DNA of 64,000 nt from Candidatus Metaruminococcus gallistercoris (GTDB lineage: Bacteria; Bacillota; Clostridia; Oscillospirales; Ruminococcaceae), in assembly GCA_904394975.1 (NCBI GenBank), contig CAJFNQ010000017.1:91641-155640 (forward strand), read 5' to 3'. Under the pieces are notes generated by a model, which worked only from the letters and a program-made list of their open reading frames with translations, was not told the DNA's origin and made no database searches. Each line of letters opens with the position of its first letter. Positions within the stretch are counted from its first letter, which is position 1. Of the stretch, positions 4,264 to 42,416 are shown in pieces. Both the position numbers and the translations under genes were made by a program.

Positions 4264-6762
4264 TTATTCATCTGCTTTTTCTTCAGAAGATTCTTCTGTT
4301 TTTTCTTCTTTGTTGTTTGAAAAAACAAACTCATTGTTTTCAAACGAAACGGTTACTTTATCCCCTGCTTTGAACTTCCCTTCCAGAAATTCCTCCGAAA
4401 GTTTATCTTCAATCTGCGAGGTGATGGCACGACGAAGCGGACGTGCGCCGTAAATCGGATCATATCCAACCTCAGCAATATGCTCGATGCAGGAATCCGA
4501 GAAATCAATGCTGATTTCCAATCCTTCAACACGTTTTTTCAAACCATTCAGCATGTTGCCGGCAATCTTTTTAATGTCATCCGACGTCAGCTTATGGAAA
4601 ACAATAATATCATCAATTCGGTTTAAAAATTCAGGTTTAAAGTGCTGCTTCAATTCACCCATAACATCCGCTTTGATGTCTTTATCATCTTTTACCGCGG
4701 CTTCTTCGGAAACAAAACCAAGATTTTTTCGCTCACTGATAAGCCGTGCGCCAATATTGGATGTCATGATGATTACACTGTTTTTAAAGCTTACTCTTCT
4801 TCCCTGACTGTCGGTCAAAATGCCGTCTTCCAGAATCTGAAGCAACATATTGAACACATCAGGATGTGCTTTCTCGACCTCATCAAACAAGATAACCGAA
4901 TATGGTTTCCGACGAATTTTTTCAGTCAGCTGACCGCCATCGTCATAACCAACATACCCCGGAGGCGAACCAACCATTCTAGAGACAGAGTGTTTCTCCA
5001 TGTACTCAGACATATCGAGACGAATCATGGCGTTTTCATCGCCAAACAGTGCTTCGGCCAGTGCTTTACAGAGCTCTGTTTTACCGACACCAGTCGGACC
5101 AAGGAACAAGAAAGAGCCAATTGGACGTTTCGGGTCTTTTAATCCAATCCTGCCGCGGCGAATGGCTTTCGCTACTGAACTTACCGCTTCATCCTGACCA
5201 ATAACACGTTCATGAAGAACCTTTTCAAGGTTAAGCAGTCGTTCGCCTTCCTGTTCATTCAGCTGTTTGACCGGTATGCCAGTCCAGCTGGAAACAATAT
5301 CCGCAATATCCTCCTCGGTTACTACACCGGAGTTATGCTTATTATCTTCCTGCCAATGTTGCTTTTGTTCTTCAAGCTGATTGGTAATCTCTTTTTCTTT
5401 GTCACGAATTTTGGCAGCAGATTCAAAATCCTGCGAATTAATCGCTGCAGCTTTTTCCTCGCCAAGGCGTTTTAATTCGTTTTCCAGCTGCTGCATATCC
5501 GGCGGAGCCGTGAATGCCTGCAAACGAACTTTGGATGCAGCCTCATCAATCAGGTCGATTGCTTTATCCGGCAGATACCGGTCGTTGATATAACGTGCAG
5601 ACAATTTTACTGCCGCTTTGATCGCTTCATCAGAAATTTTCACTTTATGATGGGCTTCATATTTATCACGAAGGCCAAACAGAATGGTAACAGCATCTTC
5701 TTCCGAAGGCTCATCCACCATGACCGGTTGGAAACGACGCTCCAGAGCAGAATCCTTTTCGATGTATTTGCGGTATTCATCAATTGTAGTTGCACCAATG
5801 AGCTGTAATTCACCACGTGCAAGCTGCGGTTTTAAAATATTGGCTGCGTCTACTGCGCCCTCCGCAGCGCCGGCACCGATAATCGTGTGAATTTCATCAA
5901 TAAACAGAATGATGTTGCCGGCTTTGGTGACTTCATCCAATGCACCTTTGATCCGCTCTTCGAAATCGCCGCGGTATTTTGCACCCGCCAACATAGAAGT
6001 AATATCCAAAGAAAACACCCGTTTGTTTTTCAGTGTCTCCGGCACCTCACCGTTGACGATCTTCTGTGCCAATCCTTCAGCGATTGCTGTTTTACCAACG
6101 CCGGGTTCCCCGATCAGGCAAGGATTGTTTTTGGTTCGTCTTGAGAGAATTTGGATGACACGTTTAATCTCTTCCTGACGCCCAACCACTGGATCGATTT
6201 GGTTATCCTTTGCAAGCTGGGTTAAATCACGGCCGAATTTATTTAACTGCGGGGTATCGCCGCCTTTGGCATTTGCGCTATGGGAGCTGCCGTAGCTGTT
6301 CTCCTGCGGCCCGGATACTCCTGCTTCACCAACTTCATTGATACATTCGCTGTAAAGGTCTCTGATGTTTACACCAAATTCCTGCAGAAATGCCACTGCA
6401 TAACTGTCAGACTCCCGCAAAATTGCCATCAGTAAATGCTCGGTACCAACGTAAGTGTGTTTCAAATTACGCGCTTCGTAAATTGACATTTCCAGAATGC
6501 GTTTGCTTCGAGGGGTAAAATCAGCCGGAGACATCCGGGTTGGAATCCCCTTGCCAATCACCGTTTCAAGTTTGTGATAAACATCCTGTTTTGTAATATT
6601 ATGTTTATTTAACAGAGTACCAGCCACACCGGTTTCTTCTCCGCAAAGTGCACATAAAATATGCTCACTGCCAATATAAGTATGGCCAAGTTCTGACGCG
6701 ATCTGCATGGCGTCATTTAAAACCTTGTTGGCTTTCTCAGTAAATCCATTGAATGCATACAT
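4264..6762 (-). CDS. clpC: ATP-dependent Clp protease ATP-binding subunit ClpC
   Basis: Two Clp_N repeats, two AAA+ modules (GEPGVGKT and GPTGVGKT), a UVR linker. It is the last gene of the ctsR operon. Confidence 0.97.
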
Positions 6763-8849: not shown

Positions 8850-9017
8850 TAGATTTTGACTAATTCATATTTCCTTGTTATTTTAAAATATCTTTTATTT
8901 TCTAACGAATTCAAAGTTTTTCTATCAATTTCATTTTGTTTTTATATTTTTTGAGTAGCACTTCTGACCGATGCAACATAGTATGTGATGTAAAACAAAA
9001 AAGGAGGTCACTTGATT

Positions 9018-9152
9018 ATGTTTAATGGTGGTTGTTGTGGAGGAAATGGTAGCTGGATTATTATTCTTATCCTGATTCTTTGCTGCTGCGGTTGTGGCGG
9101 TAATGCCTGTGGTAACAGCGGCTGCGGCAATAGCTGTGGATGCTGCGACTAA
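9018..9152 (+). CDS. 44-aa Cys/Gly-rich tiny membrane peptide (possibly a YjcZ-like sporulation peptide)
   Basis: Absent from the ORF track because it is under 60 aa. GGAGG at 9003-9007, then ATG at 9018. The product is MFNGGCCGGNGSWIIILILILCCCGCGGNACGNSGCGNSCGCCD, ending at TAA 9150. A strong terminator follows. Confidence 0.7.
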   Translation: MFNGGCCGGNGSWIIILILILCCCGCGGNACGNSGCGNSCGCCD

Positions 9153-9346: not shown

Positions 9347-10369
9347 ATGCCAAACGTCACACTTGGAAAAACAGGATTAATCGTCAATAAAAACAGTTTC
9401 GGTGCCTTGCCAATCCAGCGTATTACAAAAGAAGAAGCAGCTGTTATTTTAAAAAAAGCTTACCATAACGGAGTAAACTTTTTTGATACGGCTGTTGGTT
9501 ATTCCGACAGCGAAGAAAAAATAGGCTATGCTCTTTCGGATGTACGTGATCATATTTATATCGCCACCAAAACTCCTTCAAAAAATGCGGAAGATTTTTG
9601 GAAGGACCTTGAGAAAAGTCTTTCTCGATTAAAGACTGACCACATCGATGTATATCAGTTTCACAATCCTCCGTTCTGCCCGAAACCCGGAGACGGCACA
9701 GGATTGTATGAAGCGATGCTGGAAGCAAAAAAACAGGGTAAAATTCGTTTCATCGGCATTACCAATCATCGTTTGCCGGTTGCAATTGAAGCGGTTGAAT
9801 CCGGTCTTTACGATACCTTGCAGTTTCCGTTCAGTTATCTCGCCAGCGAAAAAGATATTGATCTTGTAAAACTTTGCAAAAAGCACAATGTCGGCTTTAT
9901 CGCAATGAAAGGCATGTCTGGCGGAATTATTACAAATAGTGCCGCCGCTTACGCATTTATGAATCAATTTGATAACGTTGTTCCGATTTGGGGAATTCAA
10001 AGAGAATCAGAGCTGGATGAATTTATTTCCTATCAGGACAACCCTCCTGCGATGGACGGTGAAATCGCCGATTTAATTGAAAAAGATAAAAAGGAGCTGT
10101 CGGGCAACTTCTGCCGCGGCTGCGCTTATTGTGAACCCTGCCCCGCCGGAATTCAAATTTCTTTAAGCGCGCGTATGATGTGGATGTTACGCCGCGCTCC
10201 CAGCCAGAATTTCACTACACCTGAATGGCAGGAAAAAATGGAACGCATTGCTAACTGCATCCACTGCAATCATTGTGTTCGTCATTGCCCATATAGTTTA
10301 AACACCCCTGCTCTTCTGGCACAAAACCTAAAGGATTACCGCGCTTATATCAAAGAGCATAATCTGTAA
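9347..10369 (+). CDS. Aldo/keto reductase fused to a C-terminal 4Fe-4S cluster domain
   Basis: AKR N-terminus (LGKTGLIVNKNSFGALP) plus CRGCAYCEPCP and CIHCNHCVRHCP ferredoxin-type motifs. AGGAGGAG SD. Confidence 0.85.
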   Translation: MPNVTLGKTGLIVNKNSFGALPIQRITKEEAAVILKKAYHNGVNFFDTAVGYSDSEEKIGYALSDVRDHIYIATKTPSKNAEDFWKDLEKSLSRLKTDHIDVYQFHNPPFCPKPGDGTGLYEAMLEAKKQGKIRFIGITNHRLPVAIEAVESGLYDTLQFPFSYLASEKDIDLVKLCKKHNVGFIAMKGMSGGIITNSAAAYAFMNQFDNVVPIWGIQRESELDEFISYQDNPPAMDGEIADLIEKDKKELSGNFCRGCAYCEPCPAGIQISLSARMMWMLRRAPSQNFTTPEWQEKMERIANCIHCNHCVRHCPYSLNTPALLAQNLKDYRAYIKEHNL

Positions 10370-36598: not shown

Positions 36599-37526
36599 CC
36601 CAATTTACAACCTCCCGTATAGTTCCCGGTCTGTCAGCACCATTTAAAAATACCAAACAATCAAATGCACCGGAACGTATTATATTGCGCACGGATGTTC
36701 GCTTTAACAGCTCATCGGTATTTGAGGCGTGCGCCGTAGCAATTACCGAAACACCGGCATTCGCACAATCGTTTAAAACACCGGAATCGCTCGATCCTCC
36801 GATTTCATCGCAGATGATAATATCCGGCGACATACACCGAAGCGCAATTCGGGTTCCGGTTAACTTTGTGTATCCGTCAAACACATCGGTATTCCATCCA
36901 ACGTCATACTGTGGAATGCCTTCATAACACGCCGCGATCTCCCCTCTTTCATCGATCAGTGAAACCTTACGGCTTTTATTAACATCTCCTGAAGACAGTG
37001 CGCGGCAGAGATCCCTGAGAACGGTTGTTTTTCCGGATGCAGGTGGTCCAACAATCAGTGTGTTTCCCACTCCATGAACGCGGTAATGCCTCAAAACGGG
37101 ATCAGCACTGCCTTTTATACAACGAGCAATGCGAAGATTGATATGATCGATTCTTCTCAAATGGGTAATTTTCTCTTTTTCCCAGGCAATATTTCCACAA
37201 AAACCCGCCCTATGTCCGCCTTTTAACGTAATAAATCCACTAAGCAATTCATTCTGTACGCTGTGCAGTGAATAATCACACATGTTTAAAATACAGCGTT
37301 CCAGAAGGTCACGTGAAACTTGAAAACAACTCTCTTTCAAGAAAGGAAAAGTTTGTCCCGTTTCATCAAAAAAAGCAGTTTGTCCATCATTTAAAATTAA
37401 TACCGCAGGGCGTCCCACGTGAATTCGCAGTTCCGTAATCCGCTCTCTCAGTGACAAGTCCAATTTTAAAAGAATCTTGGAAAATTCATCCGGCAATGAT
37501 GATACCGCCTGATCAAATGCAGTCAT
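36483..37526 (-). CDS. spoIIIAA: Stage III sporulation protein AA (secretion-type AAA+ ATPase)
   Basis: Walker A GPPASGKTT and Walker B IIICDEIG. AGAAGGA SD before the ATG at 37526. GTG at 37535 is the alternative start. The 3' tail overlaps spoIIIAB by 116 nt. Confidence 0.9.
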   Translation of the reverse strand: MTAFDQAVSSLPDEFSKILLKLDLSLRERITELRIHVGRPAVLILNDGQTAFFDETGQTFPFLKESCFQVSRDLLERCILNMCDYSLHSVQNELLSGFITLKGGHRAGFCGNIAWEKEKITHLRRIDHINLRIARCIKGSADPVLRHYRVHGVGNTLIVGPPASGKTTVLRDLCRALSSGDVNKSRKVSLIDERGEIAACYEGIPQYDVGWNTDVFDGYTKLTGTRIALRCMSPDIIICDEIGGSSDSGVLNDCANAGVSVIATAHASNTDELLKRTSVRNIIRSGAFDCLVFLNGADRPGTIREVVNWDEVFRDHSGFSGISDDWTVSFGQAQKKNERVRNMSDFY

Positions 37527-37555
37527 GTGTTTCACATCCTTCTAGTGATTGGTAC

Positions 37556-37584
37556 AGTGTATGTTGTGAAACAAAAAAATAGAA
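37556..37584 (-). promoter_or_regulatory. Candidate sigma-E promoter of spoIIIA (TTCTATT-14-CATACACT)
   Basis: The -10 matches CATACAmT at 8/8 positions and the -35 matches at 5/7, with correct spacing and distance to the SD. spoIIIA is sigma-E dependent in Bacillus. Confidence 0.45.
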
Positions 37585-37641
37585 CCATTGGTTTGAAAGC
37601 CAAATGTTTTTGAAAGATTTTTATCTTTTTCCTGCAAATAC

Positions 37642-37670
37642 TTGACAACATAATTGTTATATGTTTAAAT
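37642..37670 (+). promoter_or_regulatory. Sigma-A promoter of the aro leader/operon (TTGACA-17-TTAAAT)
   Basis: Consensus -35, 17-nt spacer, about 28 nt upstream of the leader ATG. Confidence 0.6.
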
Positions 37671-37697
37671 AAAAGAAACTGAAACGGAGGCTCATTC

Positions 37698-37811
37698 ATG
37701 GCAAACGTTAAATTTTTCGTAGCATATTTCTTTTTCTTTTTCCGTGGCTTTTACTTTAGCAACGGCTTTTTTGCTATGAAAAAATTTAATATGCTTCCGA
37801 GTTGTAGGTAA
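37698..37811 (+). CDS. Phe-rich leader peptide (37 aa) of the aro operon
   Basis: GGAGG lies 7 nt upstream of the ATG. The product is MANVKFFVAYFFFFFRGFYFSNGFFAMKKFNMLPSCR, with 12 Phe and 2 Tyr. A terminator hairpin follows. Not in the ORF track because it is under 60 aa. Confidence 0.7.
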   Translation: MANVKFFVAYFFFFFRGFYFSNGFFAMKKFNMLPSCR

Positions 37812-37854
37812 ATTGAACAGTCAGAAATAAAGCAGGCTATGACGCGGAAGTCAT
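37791..37854 (+). promoter_or_regulatory. Candidate antiterminator pairing
   Basis: AUGCUUCCG (37791-37799) is complementary to CGGAAG(U)CAU (37845-37854), which overlaps the terminator loop and the start of its 3' arm. Found by eye, no energy calculation. Confidence 0.35.
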
Positions 37855-37870
37855 GGCCTGCTTTTTTATT
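37830..37870 (+). terminator. Intrinsic terminator (attenuator) between the leader ORF and aroF
   Basis: 14-bp stem AAGCAGGCTATGAC/GTCATGGCCTGCTT (one G-U pair), loop GCGGAA, then TTTTTTATTT. It ends directly before the aroF SD. Confidence 0.8.
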
Positions 37871-37884
37871 TAGGAGGAATCAAA

Positions 37885-38895
37885 ATGGTAGTAATTTTAA
37901 AACAAAACGCCCCCAAACAACAGGTTGATGAGCTGTTAAAGCAGTTTCAGGATTTTGGTTTAAAAACCAACGTAGTTGTCGGCGAGCATACAACAATCGT
38001 AGGTTTAATTGGTGATACATCGGCAGTTGATATTGACAATGTTGCCGCAAACGAGATTGTAGAAAATGTAAAACGTGTGCAGGAACCTTATAAAAATGTA
38101 AACCGAAAATTCCACCCGGATGACAGCGTTATTGATGTAGCCGGTGAAAAAATCGGCCATAACTATTTTAAAGTTATGGCTGGTCCCTGCTCAGTCGAAA
38201 GCGAAGAACAGATCATTGAAGTAGCGAAACGCGTAAAAGCAGCCGGCGCCAAATTCCTTCGAGGAGGCGCGTTCAAACCCCGTACCTCTCCCTATTCTTT
38301 CCAAGGCTTGCGCGGAGACGGAATCGAGTTGCTTCTTGAGGCCAAAAAAGCCACTGGACTGCCAATTGTTACCGAAATCATGTCTCTTCAGCATCTCGAC
38401 TTGTTTAACGACGTAGATGTAATTCAGGTCGGCGCCCGCAACATGCAAAACTTTGAATTATTAAAAGAACTTGGTCACTCGAAAAAAACCATTCTTTTAA
38501 AACGCGGACTTGCCAACACCATTGAAGAATTTTTAATGAGCGCAGAGTACATTTATGCGGGAGGAAATTCCAACATTATCCTTTGCGAACGCGGAATTCG
38601 AACTTTTGAAACCATGACCCGCAACACATTGGATCTTTCCGCAGTTGCGCTAATCAAACGCATTTCTCACCTTCCGGTTATTGTGGACCCATCTCACGCA
38701 ACCGGCATTGTCACTTTGGTTGAACCAATGGCACTGGCCGGAGTAGCTGCCGGAGCAGACGGTTTGATGATCGAGGTTCACAACAATCCCCGGAAAGCGC
38801 TTTCTGACGGCGCACAGTCCATGACACCGGAAGCATTTGATGAAACCATGCAAAAGGTAAAGAAATTAGCTGAATTCTTCGGAAAAACACTGTAA
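37885..38895 (+). CDS. aroF: 3-deoxy-7-phosphoheptulonate (DAHP) synthase, type I-beta with an N-terminal ferredoxin-like regulatory domain
   Basis: The KDSA-like barrel starts at AGPCSVES. The N-terminal ~65 aa (MVVILKQNAPKQQVDELL...) resemble the Thermotoga-type regulatory domain. Confidence 0.93.
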   Translation: MVVILKQNAPKQQVDELLKQFQDFGLKTNVVVGEHTTIVGLIGDTSAVDIDNVAANEIVENVKRVQEPYKNVNRKFHPDDSVIDVAGEKIGHNYFKVMAGPCSVESEEQIIEVAKRVKAAGAKFLRGGAFKPRTSPYSFQGLRGDGIELLLEAKKATGLPIVTEIMSLQHLDLFNDVDVIQVGARNMQNFELLKELGHSKKTILLKRGLANTIEEFLMSAEYIYAGGNSNIILCERGIRTFETMTRNTLDLSAVALIKRISHLPVIVDPSHATGIVTLVEPMALAGVAAGADGLMIEVHNNPRKALSDGAQSMTPEAFDETMQKVKKLAEFFGKTL

Positions 38896-38905
38896 TAATA
38901 GCAGG

Positions 38906-39976
38906 ATGGCCAATATGAATAAAATTACTGTCAACGCCGGAAATGTATATGATGTTATAACCGGAACCCATATTTTAGATTCAGTCAGCGAACAAACGAA
39001 AAAAGTTTCCGCCGCAAAACGAATAGCCGTCATCACCGATGATCATGTGGCTCCGTTATATGCGCAAACGGTTTTAAATTCACTGAATCAGCACGGATAT
39101 CAGTCAGCACTGTGCATAATACCGCATGGAGAAGCGTCGAAATCGATGCAGCAGCTGCAACAGCTTTACGACTTTTTATGTGAACATAAAATTACCCGAA
39201 ACGATGCTCTGATTGCACTTGGCGGCGGAGTTGTAGGTGATCTTACCGGGTTTTGCGCTGCTACTTATATGCGCGGAATTGATTATATTCAAATTCCAAC
39301 GACCTTTTTAGCTCAGATTGATTCTTCGGTCGGCGGAAAAACCGCAATTAATATTCCGGGCGGAAAAAATCTGGTCGGCGCATTTAAACAACCGAAAGTT
39401 GTTCTGTGTGATATGAGCACGCTTTCTACCCTTTCGGCTGAACATTTTGCCGAAGGTACGGCAGAGGCGATCAAATATGGAATGATTCGTGATAAATGGA
39501 TTTTTGAAGTCATCGAATCTGGGCAATTAAATGAACGGCTCGAGGATGTAATCCGGCGCTGTATTGAAATCAAAGCACTCATTGTCGAAAAAGATGAGTT
39601 TGATACCGGAGAACGAATGCTATTAAACTTCGGCCATACATTCGGGCACGCCATTGAAAAGCATTATAACTTTACAACTTATTCACACGGTATGGCGGTA
39701 GCCGTCGGAATGGCAAAGATTACGGCATTATCAGAACAGTACGGCATCACACATAGTGGAACAACCAAACGTCTGATTCATTGCTTAAAAAAGAATCATC
39801 TCCCGATTGAAGCGGAAATTGACAACGAGCACCTAATCGAATATAGTCTGATGGACAAAAAAGCTGGAGCCGATAATATTCACATTGTACTTGTAAAGGA
39901 TATCGGCGAAAGTTTTATTCAACTCTTGTCGCGGGATGAGTACATTTCATTTGTTGAGGGAGATTACAAAGCATGA
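38906..39976 (+). CDS. aroB: 3-dehydroquinate synthase
   Basis: GGGVVGDLTGFCAATYMRGI, SSVGGKTAIN and NFGHTFGHAIE motifs. Confidence 0.95.
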   Translation: MANMNKITVNAGNVYDVITGTHILDSVSEQTKKVSAAKRIAVITDDHVAPLYAQTVLNSLNQHGYQSALCIIPHGEASKSMQQLQQLYDFLCEHKITRNDALIALGGGVVGDLTGFCAATYMRGIDYIQIPTTFLAQIDSSVGGKTAINIPGGKNLVGAFKQPKVVLCDMSTLSTLSAEHFAEGTAEAIKYGMIRDKWIFEVIESGQLNERLEDVIRRCIEIKALIVEKDEFDTGERMLLNFGHTFGHAIEKHYNFTTYSHGMAVAVGMAKITALSEQYGITHSGTTKRLIHCLKKNHLPIEAEIDNEHLIEYSLMDKKAGADNIHIVLVKDIGESFIQLLSRDEYISFVEGDYKA

Positions 39977-41256
39977 ATTTGTTGTTTTCGCCTTCTCATT
40001 TACATGGAACCATACAGGCTGTCCCCTCCAAAAGCGCCTCACACCGCGCAATCATTTGTGCGGCATTGGCCAATGGAACCAGCCGTATTGATAATATAAT
40101 TTTTTCGAAAGATATTTATGCAACGATTGAATGCTTAAAAGCGCTGGGAGCTCAAGTAATTTGCGAAGAAAATGCTGTTGTTGTTACCGGAGTGAGCCAG
40201 CCTTCTTCCAGCCCAACATTACCATGCTGTGAATCAGGTTCAACCCTTCGCTTTTTGATCCCCGTAGCCGCAGTGCTTGGGTGTAACGCCCAATTTACCG
40301 GTGAAGGACGGCTTCCAAGCCGTCCGATCACACCGTATCTTGACTCGTTGCCCGCGCAAGGTATTGCGTTTGACTATCATAACACCATGCCTTTTTCCAT
40401 AAGCGGGCAGTTAAAAAGCGGTATTTTTACCATTCCCGGAAACATCAGCTCACAATTTATCACTGGTTTGATGTTTGCCCTGCCCCTTTGTTCCGGTGAC
40501 AGCGAAATCATAGTGACCGGAGAATTTGAATCCCGTCCATACGTTCAAATGACCGCGGATATGCTTGAAAAATTTGGGATTTACATTGATGTCAACGATA
40601 ATCATATCAACATTAAAGGAAGCCAAACCTATTCGCCCGCTAATATTACTGTTGAAGGCGATTTTTCACAAGCTGCCTTTTTTCTGGTTGCAGGCGCTAT
40701 TGGAACCAGTCCGATTACAGTGAATGGGTTAGACTATAACCATACCTCACAGGGTGACCGCATGATCATAGATCTGCTGAAACAATGCGGCGCTGATGTT
40801 TTGGTAACACCTTCATCCGTTACGGTTTCCCCTGCCGCAAAAAAACTCATGCCTTTTTCCGCAGATGTGCGGGATATACCGGATTTGGTTCCAATCATGG
40901 CCATACTCGCCGCTCGCTGTGACGGCACATCAAATATTCATCACGCACAGCGGCTGAAATTAAAAGAAAGCGACCGTCTGCAAGCGGTTGCTGATCTGCT
41001 TCATGCAATCGGCGGACAAGCCGACGCACGAGAGGATGGGCTGACAATTCAGGGAACTGCTTTCCGTTCCGGAACAGTATCCAGCATGAACGATCACAGG
41101 ATCGCAATGGCCGCAGCCGTTGCCTCTACCGTGTCCTCAGGCGATACCACGTTGCTGCAAGCGGAAGCAGTTGAAAAATCATACCCCGGATTTTACCGGG
41201 ATTATCAAACTTTGGGAGGAATCTGTCGTGTCATCGACGTGGAACAGAACACTTAA
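39973..41256 (+). CDS. aroA: 3-phosphoshikimate 1-carboxyvinyltransferase (EPSP synthase)
   Basis: PSKSASHRA, LKESDR and DHRIAMAAAV motifs. The start overlaps the aroB stop by 4 nt. Confidence 0.95.
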   Translation: MNLLFSPSHLHGTIQAVPSKSASHRAIICAALANGTSRIDNIIFSKDIYATIECLKALGAQVICEENAVVVTGVSQPSSSPTLPCCESGSTLRFLIPVAAVLGCNAQFTGEGRLPSRPITPYLDSLPAQGIAFDYHNTMPFSISGQLKSGIFTIPGNISSQFITGLMFALPLCSGDSEIIVTGEFESRPYVQMTADMLEKFGIYIDVNDNHINIKGSQTYSPANITVEGDFSQAAFFLVAGAIGTSPITVNGLDYNHTSQGDRMIIDLLKQCGADVLVTPSSVTVSPAAKKLMPFSADVRDIPDLVPIMAILAARCDGTSNIHHAQRLKLKESDRLQAVADLLHAIGGQADAREDGLTIQGTAFRSGTVSSMNDHRIAMAAAVASTVSSGDTTLLQAEAVEKSYPGFYRDYQTLGGICRVIDVEQNT

Positions 41257-42325
41257 ACTATCCATTTTCGGCGAATCACACGGAAAAGCAATCGGAATGG
41301 TTTTGGATAACCTTCCCGCCGGTGAAGCGATTGACCTGGACGAACTTCACGCATTCACCCGTCGCCGTATTGCCAAAAAAGGAGATACCACCACGACGGC
41401 TCGCGCGGAAGCTGACTTGGCCGAACTGGTTTCAGGTTATTATAACGGTGTAACAACCGGCACGCCGCTCACCGGAATCATTCAAAATACCGATACACGC
41501 TCCAAGGACTATGGCGAAATGCAACATCTTGCTCGACCCGGACACGCGGATTACACAGGATATTTGCGTTATCATGGTTTTAACGATATTCGCGGAGGAG
41601 GACATTTCTCCGGGCGGCTGACCGCTCCTTTGGTTCTAGCAGGTGGTATATGCAAACAAATTTTGGAACGCCGCGGAGTGTATGTCGCTTCTCACATATT
41701 GTCCATCCGAGACACATCGGATCAAACATTTTGTCCAACAAATATTTCCTTAGAACTGGTGAAATCGTTGCAAACAAGCGCATTTCCGGTAATTGATCCA
41801 AATTGCGAACAGGAAATGCGCCGTGTCATTGACGAAGCTCGTCTTGCACAGGATTCTGTGGGCGGTGTCATCGAGTGCTGTGTCATTGGACTTCCTGCGG
41901 GTGTCGGCTCCCCTATATTTGACGGAATTGAAAATGTAATTTCGTCTATTGTTTTCGGAATCCCGGCAGTAAAAGGGATCGAATTCGGCGACGGCTTCGC
42001 GAGCACACATCGTTTTGGCAGCGAAAACAACGATTCCTTCTATACTGAAGATGATATTGTAAAAACTAAAAGCAACCACAACGGAGGAATTTTAGGAGGA
42101 ATATCCTCCGGCATGCCTATTATTTTCCGAACGGCAATCAAACCAACATCTTCTATTTCACAGCCGCAGCAAACAATCGATTACAAAACATTGGAAAACA
42201 CAACAATCGAAGTACGCGGAAGGCACGACCCATGCATCGCCGTTCGTGCTGCTGTTGTGGTTGAAGCAGCTACAAATCTTGCAATTCTTGATTTGATGAT
42301 CGAACACGGAATAATCAAGCTGTAA
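41228..42325 (+). CDS. aroC: Chorismate synthase
   Basis: LKLSIFGESHG, GRLTAP and RHDPC motifs. GGGAGGA SD before the GTG at 41228. The ORF track's earlier start at 41120 lies inside aroA. Confidence 0.92.
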   Translation: MSSTWNRTLKLSIFGESHGKAIGMVLDNLPAGEAIDLDELHAFTRRRIAKKGDTTTTARAEADLAELVSGYYNGVTTGTPLTGIIQNTDTRSKDYGEMQHLARPGHADYTGYLRYHGFNDIRGGGHFSGRLTAPLVLAGGICKQILERRGVYVASHILSIRDTSDQTFCPTNISLELVKSLQTSAFPVIDPNCEQEMRRVIDEARLAQDSVGGVIECCVIGLPAGVGSPIFDGIENVISSIVFGIPAVKGIEFGDGFASTHRFGSENNDSFYTEDDIVKTKSNHNGGILGGISSGMPIIFRTAIKPTSSISQPQQTIDYKTLENTTIEVRGRHDPCIAVRAAVVVEAATNLAILDLMIEHGIIKL

Positions 42326-42383: not shown

Positions 42384-42416
42384 AAAAGCAGTCCGTTAAA
42401 AACGGACTGCTTTTTT
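42384..42416. terminator. Bidirectional intrinsic terminator (aroC / yebC)
   Basis: AAAAGCAGTCCGTT-AAA-AACGGACTGCTTTT. Confidence 0.88.

Follow-up and report, generated by a model that had tools for sequence, protein, structure and literature searches.

What decides whether RNA polymerase enters the shikimate-pathway operon aroF-aroB-aroA-aroC of Candidatus Metaruminococcus gallistercoris? We addressed this question in a 64,000-nucleotide (nt) stretch of its DNA (hereafter the window), in which a short, Phe-rich open reading frame (ORF) and a hairpin lie directly ahead of aroF. An earlier reading of these letters (the original prediction) had proposed that the two form a Phe-responsive attenuator of the peptide-dependent type. 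Our analysis of the sequence and of modelled RNA folds indicates that the region very probably encodes a ribosome-mediated leader-peptide transcription attenuator, one that would tie aroF-aroB-aroA-aroC to the supply of both charged tRNA-Phe and charged tRNA-Tyr.

The leader begins with a sigma-A-type promoter on the forward strand (37642-37670), read from the sequence as a -35 element TTGACA (37642-47), a 17-nt spacer and a -10 element TTAAAT (37665-70), with an extended -10 TG at 37662-63 within the spacer. It scored 11/13, the perfect -35 and the TGn being counted; because its -10 element carries T in place of the consensus A at position 2, our promoter scan left it unlisted. The transcript would be predicted to start near 37677. 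A Shine-Dalgarno (SD) sequence, GGAGG (37686-37690, + strand), stands 7 nt ahead of an ATG at 37698, which opens a 37-codon leader ORF (37698-37811, + strand; stop codon TAA, 37809-11) encoding the peptide MANVKFFVAYFFFFFRGFYFSNGFFAMKKFNMLPSCR. Twelve of the 37 codons specify Phe, including one run of five, and two specify Tyr. Eleven of the Phe codons and both Tyr codons fall within 37713-37772 (+ strand), the proposed ribosome stall sites; the main run, Tyr followed by five Phe, occupies 37725-37742, and the twelfth Phe codon is 37785-87. A search for leader-like ORFs found this one to be the sole ORF of its type within the window. An exact look-up of the peptide gave matches on three short contigs only. 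The promoter, SD, ORF, stop codon and hairpin of the original prediction are all present where it had placed them.

Between the leader ORF and aroF lies an intrinsic terminator (37829-37871, + strand), composed of a 5' arm (37829-43), a loop, GCGGAA (37844-49), a 3' arm (37850-64) and a T-run. The hairpin has 15 pairs over 37829-37864 and a predicted stability of -26.0 kcal/mol; it had been described as a 14-bp hairpin, and the terminator scan adds one pair. The T-run (37862-67 and 37869-71) adjoins the SD of aroF, as had been claimed, although the earlier count of its length overlaps the last two pairs of the stem. Competing with this terminator would be an antiterminator, whose 5' strand, AUGCUUCCG-A-GUUGUAG (37791-37807, + strand), can pair with 37837-54 and overlaps a segment complementary to the leader SD (the anti-SD). 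The pairing comprises 37791-99 with 37845-54, plus GUUGUAG (37801-07) with CUAUGAC (37837-43), and yields a helix of 16 bp over the 17-nt strand, interrupted by a single mismatch and a single bulge, with a predicted stability of -17.7 kcal/mol. This helix takes up the terminator loop together with the upper part of each arm, and its 5' strand ends 2 nt ahead of the leader stop codon. The pairing of AUGCUUCCG with CGGAAG-U-CAU in the original prediction is real, with a CUUCCG:CGGAAG core that shows compensatory changes among close relatives, but it is only the outer half of the full antiterminator.

We propose that these elements would operate as follows. Transcription would begin some 20 nt ahead of the leader ATG, and the leader would be engaged by a ribosome before polymerase has left it. 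With ample Phe and Tyr, the ribosome would reach the stop codon (37809-11) and cover approximately 37794-37823, including the antiterminator 5' strand; with that strand covered, the terminator (37829-64) would form and transcription would end at the T-run before aroF. With Phe-tRNA or Tyr-tRNA scarce, the ribosome would stall within 37713-37772 and leave 37791-37807 free to pair with 37837-54 once the latter had been transcribed; the antiterminator would then take up the terminator arms and loop, and polymerase would continue into aroF. An inner hairpin followed by six U residues (37742-72) would pause polymerase while the lead ribosome catches up. We infer that the leader ORF is translated, that ribosome stalling occurs on it and that the switch is kinetic.

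Does the leader ORF recur ahead of aroF elsewhere? We assembled a genome set by taking 80 aroF loci, with AroF at 61-73% identity, from species representatives; most are from metagenome-assembled genomes (MAGs) of Oscillospiraceae, Ruminococcaceae and Lachnospiraceae and some from isolates, and the window brought the set to 81 loci. A metagenome set provided 80 further aroF loci, 74 of them usable. Leader-type ORFs were scored as those having an SD and an ATG, 12-70 codons, at least 5 Phe/Tyr/Trp per 10 residues and a position no more than 350 nt upstream of aroF. We found such an ORF ahead of aroF at 44 of the 81 genome loci, window included, and at 40 of the 74 usable metagenome loci; the controls gave 9 in 1620 dinucleotide-preserving shuffles (0.6%) and 0 in 81 on the reverse strand. 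Removal of duplicates left 80 distinct leaders, 15 to 47 amino acids (aa) in length, with a median of 33 codons, 5 Phe and 3 Tyr. Phe and Tyr occur together in 76 of these, Tyr outnumbers Phe in 22 and Trp is present in 16. Thus the Phe part of the sensor first envisaged holds, but not Phe alone, since 76 of 80 family leaders pair it with Tyr. Tyr (UAY) codons across the 80 leaders numbered 293 in frame versus 35 and 96 in the other two frames, a contrast that owes part to the ORF selection criteria, so that the shuffle control is the fair test. The family signal sits at the level of codons, beyond U-richness.

The flanking signals recur as well. A terminator follows the leader in 78 of the 80 distinct cases, at a median of 30 nt past the stop codon, and a promoter match of at least 10/13 within 90 nt upstream of the leader ATG was found for 88% of orthologous leaders, compared with 4.7% of shuffles. 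The original prediction had counted loss of the ORF or of its Phe clustering in relatives as evidence against it; we found instead that the SD-preceded ORF, the aromatic clustering and the terminator are kept from 89% to about 62% AroF identity. On the evidence of these sequences, the leader family is real, large and conserved. One MAG, ERR1190762-bin.8, carries two aroF paralogs, L012 with a Phe-rich leader and terminator and L017 with no leader; the L017 locus also contains a T-box at 4759-5003, downstream of aroF, which presumably controls the next gene.

Scans of the genome and metagenome contigs with AroF gave a best identity of 73%, and a protein database included AroF orthologs at 85-89% and 77-78% identity. 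We took ten contigs of such close relatives, nine of which had enough upstream DNA (AroF 78-89% identical). All nine carry a homologous leader, for example MNAVKFFVAYFFFFFRGFFFSDGFFAMKKFDSVRGCR in L168 and MNGIQSYTANFNFFFFRGFYFSDGFFAVEKFNTAPSCR in L164. The order spoIIIAA, leader, aroF, aroB is shared by eight of the nine; in L170 a gene for ribosomal protein L21 lies upstream instead. The Phe run varies by in-frame 6-nt indels (FFF versus FFFFF), one relative has a TTG leader start behind GGAGG, and in two the leader ORF has already been called by automatic gene callers.

The competing structures were examined in the same relatives. In the close set, the terminator is 95.3% paired with five compensatory pairs, a value reached by 0 of 500 shuffles, and in a subfamily of leaders designated FFWRVKK it is 96% paired, with 8 of 12 pairs compensatory. 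The inner antiterminator helix is 92.9% paired in close relatives, compared with 21-54% in slid controls, and the two-part antiterminator is the minimum free energy (MFE) structure of the nascent RNA in 9/9, each folded singly. The pair adjacent to the junction of the two helices is G-C in the window and L168, A-U in L164, L165, L169, L170 and L173, and G-U in L166 and L167; a pair further out in the outer helix is U-A in the window and L166-L168 and C-G in L169 and L173. These outer-helix changes were read from per-sequence folds instead of a formal column count; MAFFT did not register the outer helix because of loop-length indels. The leader stop codon lies 1-2 nt past the antiterminator 5' strand in all close relatives.

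Two observations concern the boundary between leader and aroF in these relatives. In L166, L167, L169 and L173, about 60-90 nt separate the terminator from aroF, compared with the abutting T-run of the window, and the longer spacer carries extra sequence, such as GCTGGTCTGATGCATCCCTTAAAGGGATTT in L166. In addition, two AroF database entries, P0002 with 485 aa and P0028 with 427 aa, exceed the others in length by 90-150 residues; this may be a gene-calling artefact that reads through the leader region, or a real fusion.

Two further structures within the leader, absent from the original prediction, bear on how the RNA might behave. The MFE fold pairs segment 1 (37707-37724, + strand) with segment 2 (37772-37790, + strand) into a stem, 1:2, of -21.8 kcal/mol that encloses the aromatic codons. 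In close relatives, 90.6% of stem 1:2 is paired, slid controls giving about 40%, and one of its pairs is compensatory. The second structure is the hairpin inside the ORF (37742-37765, + strand), formed by CCGU (37742-45) with ACGG (37762-65) and GCU (37747-49) with AGC (37758-60); Phe/Tyr codons make up its loop, U6 follows at 37767-72, and its predicted stability is -8.1 kcal/mol. Among 12 diverse leaders, the inner hairpin is 96.4% paired, compared with 25-42% in slid controls, 4 of its 7 pairs show compensatory changes, and 0 of 500 shuffles scored as high. Our covariance model R1 found a sole match in the window, at the inner hairpin site, with 58 bits. The residues encoded at the stem vary (R/Q/P/L; N/A/V/P) with the pairing retained, a pattern indicating that it is the RNA, and not the peptide, that is under selection.

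The leader also contains alternatives to these pairings. Part of segment 2 and the two nt before it, UUUGCUAUGA (37770-79), can pair with the start-codon region, UCAUGGCAAA (37695-704), which by eye matches pairings in L047 and L025. The leader SD can pair with the anti-SD, GCUUCC (37793-98), and 8-10 of the 10 sequences aligned, the window being one of them, retain the GGAG:CUCC/UUCC core of this pairing. With these start-region and SD pairings in place, the completed leader RNA would conceal its own ribosome-binding site. Three related segments can be recognized: SD GGAGGC (37686-91), anti-SD GCUUCC (37793-98) and an SD-like CGGAAG (37845-50) in the terminator loop. The anti-SD is able to pair with either of the others, and close relatives preserve this pattern (GGAG, CUCC, GGAG). 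As predicted from these complementarities, the choice made by the anti-SD ties sequestration of the leader ribosome-binding site to the choice of the antiterminator.

We then asked how modelled ribosomes affect these folds. For nascent transcripts truncated at 37849 or 37856, folding gave the antiterminator as the MFE structure either with no ribosome or with a ribosome stalled at the Phe run. Placing the ribosome on the stop codon instead (approximately 37794-37823) masked the antiterminator 5' strand, and the terminator stem nucleated. Across 78 leaders, moving the modelled ribosome from the stop codon to the stall raised sequestration of the terminator 5' arm from 0.43 to 0.63 (Wilcoxon p = 2e-5); the stalled state gave the higher value at 46 loci and the lower value at 17. 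Compared with shuffled controls, stalled-state sequestration was 75% versus 50%, with a mean z of -1.9. These effects are modest and come from MFE folds; their direction is as predicted. Together with the conserved ORF, codons, terminator and antiterminator in relatives, the models support the attenuation mechanism that the original prediction had put forward.

A number of our results weigh against attenuation, and we consider them together here. In equilibrium folds, the terminator (-26 kcal/mol) beats the antiterminator (-17.7 kcal/mol) at every modelled ribosome position. Since the terminator forms everywhere at equilibrium, the switch must be kinetic, with the ribosome close behind polymerase. 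In the folding with ribosome-masked segments suggested by the original prediction, nascent folds switch as proposed and equilibrium folds always yield the terminator. The window's own stall-state fold has a z of -0.15, no better than shuffles. Even with no ribosome at all, the nascent fold is still the antiterminator; read-through is therefore predicted for an untranslated leader, unlike the classical super-attenuation of trp. Covariation in the antiterminator is thin, consisting of few compensatory pairs from per-sequence folds, and in the FFWRVKK subfamily complementarity of the antiterminator is kept but a covariation signal was not found. About 45% of the related aroF loci in the genome and metagenome sets have no Phe/Tyr leader. 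Finally, Bacillota have been classed at the phylum level as organisms of runaway, uncoupled transcription (PMC7858274 and PMC13323073). An attenuator of this type would work poorly under runaway transcription unless pausing re-established the coupling.

In the E. coli trp leader, the 1:2 pause hairpin lets the lead ribosome catch up. By analogy, the inner hairpin and U6 of the aroF leader are inferred to be an RNA polymerase pause signal. We more tentatively entertain a stronger claim, which seems to us possible but somewhat doubtful: that the dual Phe/Tyr attenuator works only because the hairpin and U-tract (37742-72) pause polymerase until the lead ribosome arrives, creating local transcription-translation coupling. 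If true, Clostridia would have here their first widespread reporter of ribosome-polymerase coupling to have arisen by natural selection, and the hairpin pause would account for the much greater length of these leaders relative to enterobacterial ones. Leader attenuation needs a ribosome near polymerase, and a conserved case in Bacillota would be a natural test of coupling.

Could the conserved RNA structures, rather than a translated ORF, be what controls the terminator? Such control might come from the binding of a tRNA, a protein or a small ligand to a structured leader RNA, in the manner of a riboswitch, T-box or TRAP target, with the ORF an accident of U-rich sequence. The conserved, covarying inner hairpin and stem 1:2 inside the putative ORF, the z of -3.8 for the fold of the whole leader relative to shuffles, and the 44% U content of the ORF would all fit such an RNA. 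However, Rfam at gathering thresholds gave no relevant match in the whole window, Phe_leader and other leader models included, and at E <= 10 the 21 matches within 37500-38000 included no meaningful leader, T-box or riboswitch family. The T-box model RF00230 found no match in the window leader, while the same model detects the T-box of L017 (4759-5003); nor was a T-box found upstream of aroF in 20 related loci lacking the leader. The array of (G/U)AG triplets bound by TRAP (about 9-11 triplets at 2-3 nt spacing) is missing from the leader: the longest chain was 2, and shuffles gave a mean of 1.4 and a maximum of 4. An accidental ORF is also hard to reconcile with an SD, ATG, open frame and in-frame Phe/Tyr codons kept above controls in very divergent sequences, with Phe-run indels that stay in frame, and with a stop codon fixed 1-2 nt past the antiterminator strand. 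We therefore regard a purely structural switch as highly unlikely. We give still less credence, close to none, to the notion that the ORF encodes a functional hydrophobic micro-protein, such as a membrane peptide, with the hairpin serving as its terminator or as a leaky insulator and no amino-acid sensing involved. The peptide is indeed hydrophobic, is called as a gene by automatic pipelines and has a recognizable sequence common to close relatives. Yet the family as a whole conserves aromatic richness only, its members ranging from 15 to 47 aa with widely variable sequence; residue changes track RNA base-pairing and not peptide chemistry; and an NCBIfam search with the leader peptide matched no family. 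Moreover, the element is always directly upstream of aroF, with a strong terminator between them, and its enriched residues are the end products of the downstream pathway.

A different possibility accepts a translated Phe/Tyr sensor and gives it another output, namely control of aroF translation, Rho-dependent termination on an exposed, pyrimidine-rich leader, or nascent-peptide arrest. In its favour are the thermodynamic advantage that the terminator always holds and the limited antiterminator covariation. As regards Rho, pyrimidine-rich nascent RNA is reported to attract it in species with runaway transcription (PMC13323073), and the leader ORF is 59% pyrimidine, compared with 47% for aroF. 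On the other hand, 78 of 80 leaders carry a canonical intrinsic terminator ending in a T-run, which would make Rho unnecessary, and the terminator 3' arm leaves the aroF SD uncovered. The antiterminator geometry, found in all close relatives with compensatory changes, and the expected shift of sequestration with modelled ribosome position across the family also argue for transcription attenuation. We judge that a sensor with such an alternative output is unlikely, and continue with the attenuator as the preferred reading.

How does the proposed attenuator compare with known systems? Leader-peptide attenuation is the textbook mechanism for enterobacterial trp, his, pheA and pheST. The Clostridia element follows the same logic as the enterobacterial pheL, trp and his leaders: cognate codons cluster in a short ORF, the 1:2, antiterminator and terminator structures are alternatives to one another, and the position of the stop codon lets a ribosome that terminates there block antiterminator pairing. 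It differs from them in several respects. The pheL leader has 15 codons, and the window leader, at 37, is more than twice as long. The Clostridia leader reads two amino acids and controls the common shikimate pathway, whereas the enterobacterial pheA leader controls a terminal branch. Its regulatory codons are looped out by stem 1:2, whereas those of enterobacterial leaders belong to segment 1, and, unlike those leaders, it is modelled as having no super-attenuation when untranslated. The usual way for Firmicutes to couple transcription to tRNA charging via a terminator and antiterminator is the T-box (RF00230), which reaches a functionally equivalent outcome; T-box RNAs are untranslated and bind uncharged tRNA directly, and the window leader has no T-box match.

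Leader-peptide attenuators have previously been proposed in Gram-positive bacteria. In Firmicutes, his attenuators have been predicted in the B. cereus group, Peptostreptococcaceae and Erysipelotrichales (PMC9413887) and a leuA attenuator in Streptococcus (PMC5314783). Closest in position is the aroR leader of Corynebacterium glutamicum, which carries a Phe-Tyr-Phe motif ahead of the aroF operon and responds to Phe limitation (Neshat et al. 2014, as described in PMC11802643). According to that description, aroR-aroF and the Clostridia element are alike in placing a Phe/Tyr leader directly ahead of a DAHP (3-deoxy-D-arabino-heptulosonate 7-phosphate) synthase operon in a Gram-positive host. In C. 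glutamicum the rise in read-through as ribosomes stall under Phe limitation is, by the same account, experimental, and of the two amino acids Phe alone had an effect there; for the Clostridia element such a rise is predicted. Compared by description, the former combines an actinobacterial host with a short Phe-Tyr-Phe motif, and the latter has family medians of 5 Phe and 3 Tyr in a leader of roughly 33 codons. From Acholeplasma and from environmental sequences of unassigned origin, Brewer et al. (2021, PMC8632094) predicted an upstream ORF, uORFC-13-1, whose 24 representatives all lie ahead of aroF. It has -35 and -10 boxes, a ribosome-binding site, a start codon, a Phe-coding U-run, an extra paired substructure and a terminator, and Phe attenuation was proposed for it (PMC8632094). 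Compared by description, the window leader has every feature listed for uORFC-13-1 (location upstream of aroF, promoter, ribosome-binding site, start codon, Phe U-run and terminator), but where 'at least one' Phe codon was noted for uORFC-13-1, the window leader has 12. The uORFC-13-1 family was not among the Rfam matches of the leader at E <= 10.

Our full-text literature search found no description of an aroF leader in Oscillospirales or Lachnospirales, and Rfam 15 also has no family for it. The earlier claim that such an attenuator was uncharacterised thus holds for Clostridia in the literature searched, but aroF attenuators have a precedent in Corynebacterium and a predicted one in Acholeplasma. 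The Clostridia aroF leader appears, then, to combine a known mechanism with an undescribed family. Its at least 80 distinct sequences add to the few leader-peptide attenuators proposed in Firmicutes and offer a basis for an Rfam or annotation model. They also provide a regulatory annotation for the entry into aromatic amino-acid synthesis in gut and rumen Oscillospiraceae, Ruminococcaceae, Lachnospiraceae and Acutalibacteraceae, where no regulator is annotated. Cultured carriers include Blautia hominis KB1 (L071), Angelakisella massiliensis (L028), Marasmitruncus massiliensis (L042) and Ruminococcus sp. zg-924 (L072).

Downstream of the leader, profile matches from NCBIfam and TIGR back the gene order aroF-aroB-aroA-aroC given by the original prediction. 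The first gene, aroF (37885-38895, + strand; start ATG at 37885, SD AGGAGG at 37872-77), encodes a class I-beta DAHP synthase (NCBIfam NF006421, 499 bits). AroF has an N-terminal ferredoxin-like regulatory domain, and Pfam PF18152 and PF00793 were matched on homologs; residues 1-70 (window 37885-38095) form an N-terminal extension of about 70 residues, the part that corresponds to the PF18152 match on homologs. The ferredoxin-like domain of DAHP synthase mediates feedback inhibition in related enzymes. The entry step of the pathway would thus be under both allosteric and attenuation control. Next come aroB (3-dehydroquinate synthase; 38906-39976, + strand; TIGR01357, 372 bits), aroA (5-enolpyruvylshikimate 3-phosphate synthase; 39973-41256, + strand; TIGR01356, 381 bits) and aroC (chorismate synthase; 41228-42325, + strand; NF003793, 388 bits, matching from residue 47 of an ORF that begins at 41120). 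The frame of aroC is open from 41120, and its start is likely the GTG at 41228, which has GGGAGG upstream.

The operon is bounded on its upstream side by the divergent spoIIIA operon, which precedes the aro leader. On the downstream side, the terminator scan identified a palindromic hairpin of 14 pairs (42384-42414, listed on the - strand) flanked by an A-run and a T-run; from its sequence, it is probably a bidirectional terminator that closes both the aro operon and a convergent yebC-family gene. Inside aroB lies a promoter-like sequence, TTGACA-17-TATAGT (39819-39847, + strand), which has 11/12 matches and sits about 125 nt ahead of the aroA start. This may be an internal promoter that frees aroA-aroC from the attenuator, or a chance match.

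Far from the aro locus, at 9012-9152 (+ strand), the window contains an SD-preceded, 46-codon ORF with a TTG start that would encode a Cys/Gly-rich peptide, MIMFNGGCCGGNGSWIIILILILCCCGCGGNACGNSGCGNSCGCCD. An NCBIfam search with this peptide gave no match. The ORF sits between larger ORFs, just ahead of a 340-aa ORF (9347-10369), and might encode a small sporulation-type Cys-rich protein or be a non-gene.

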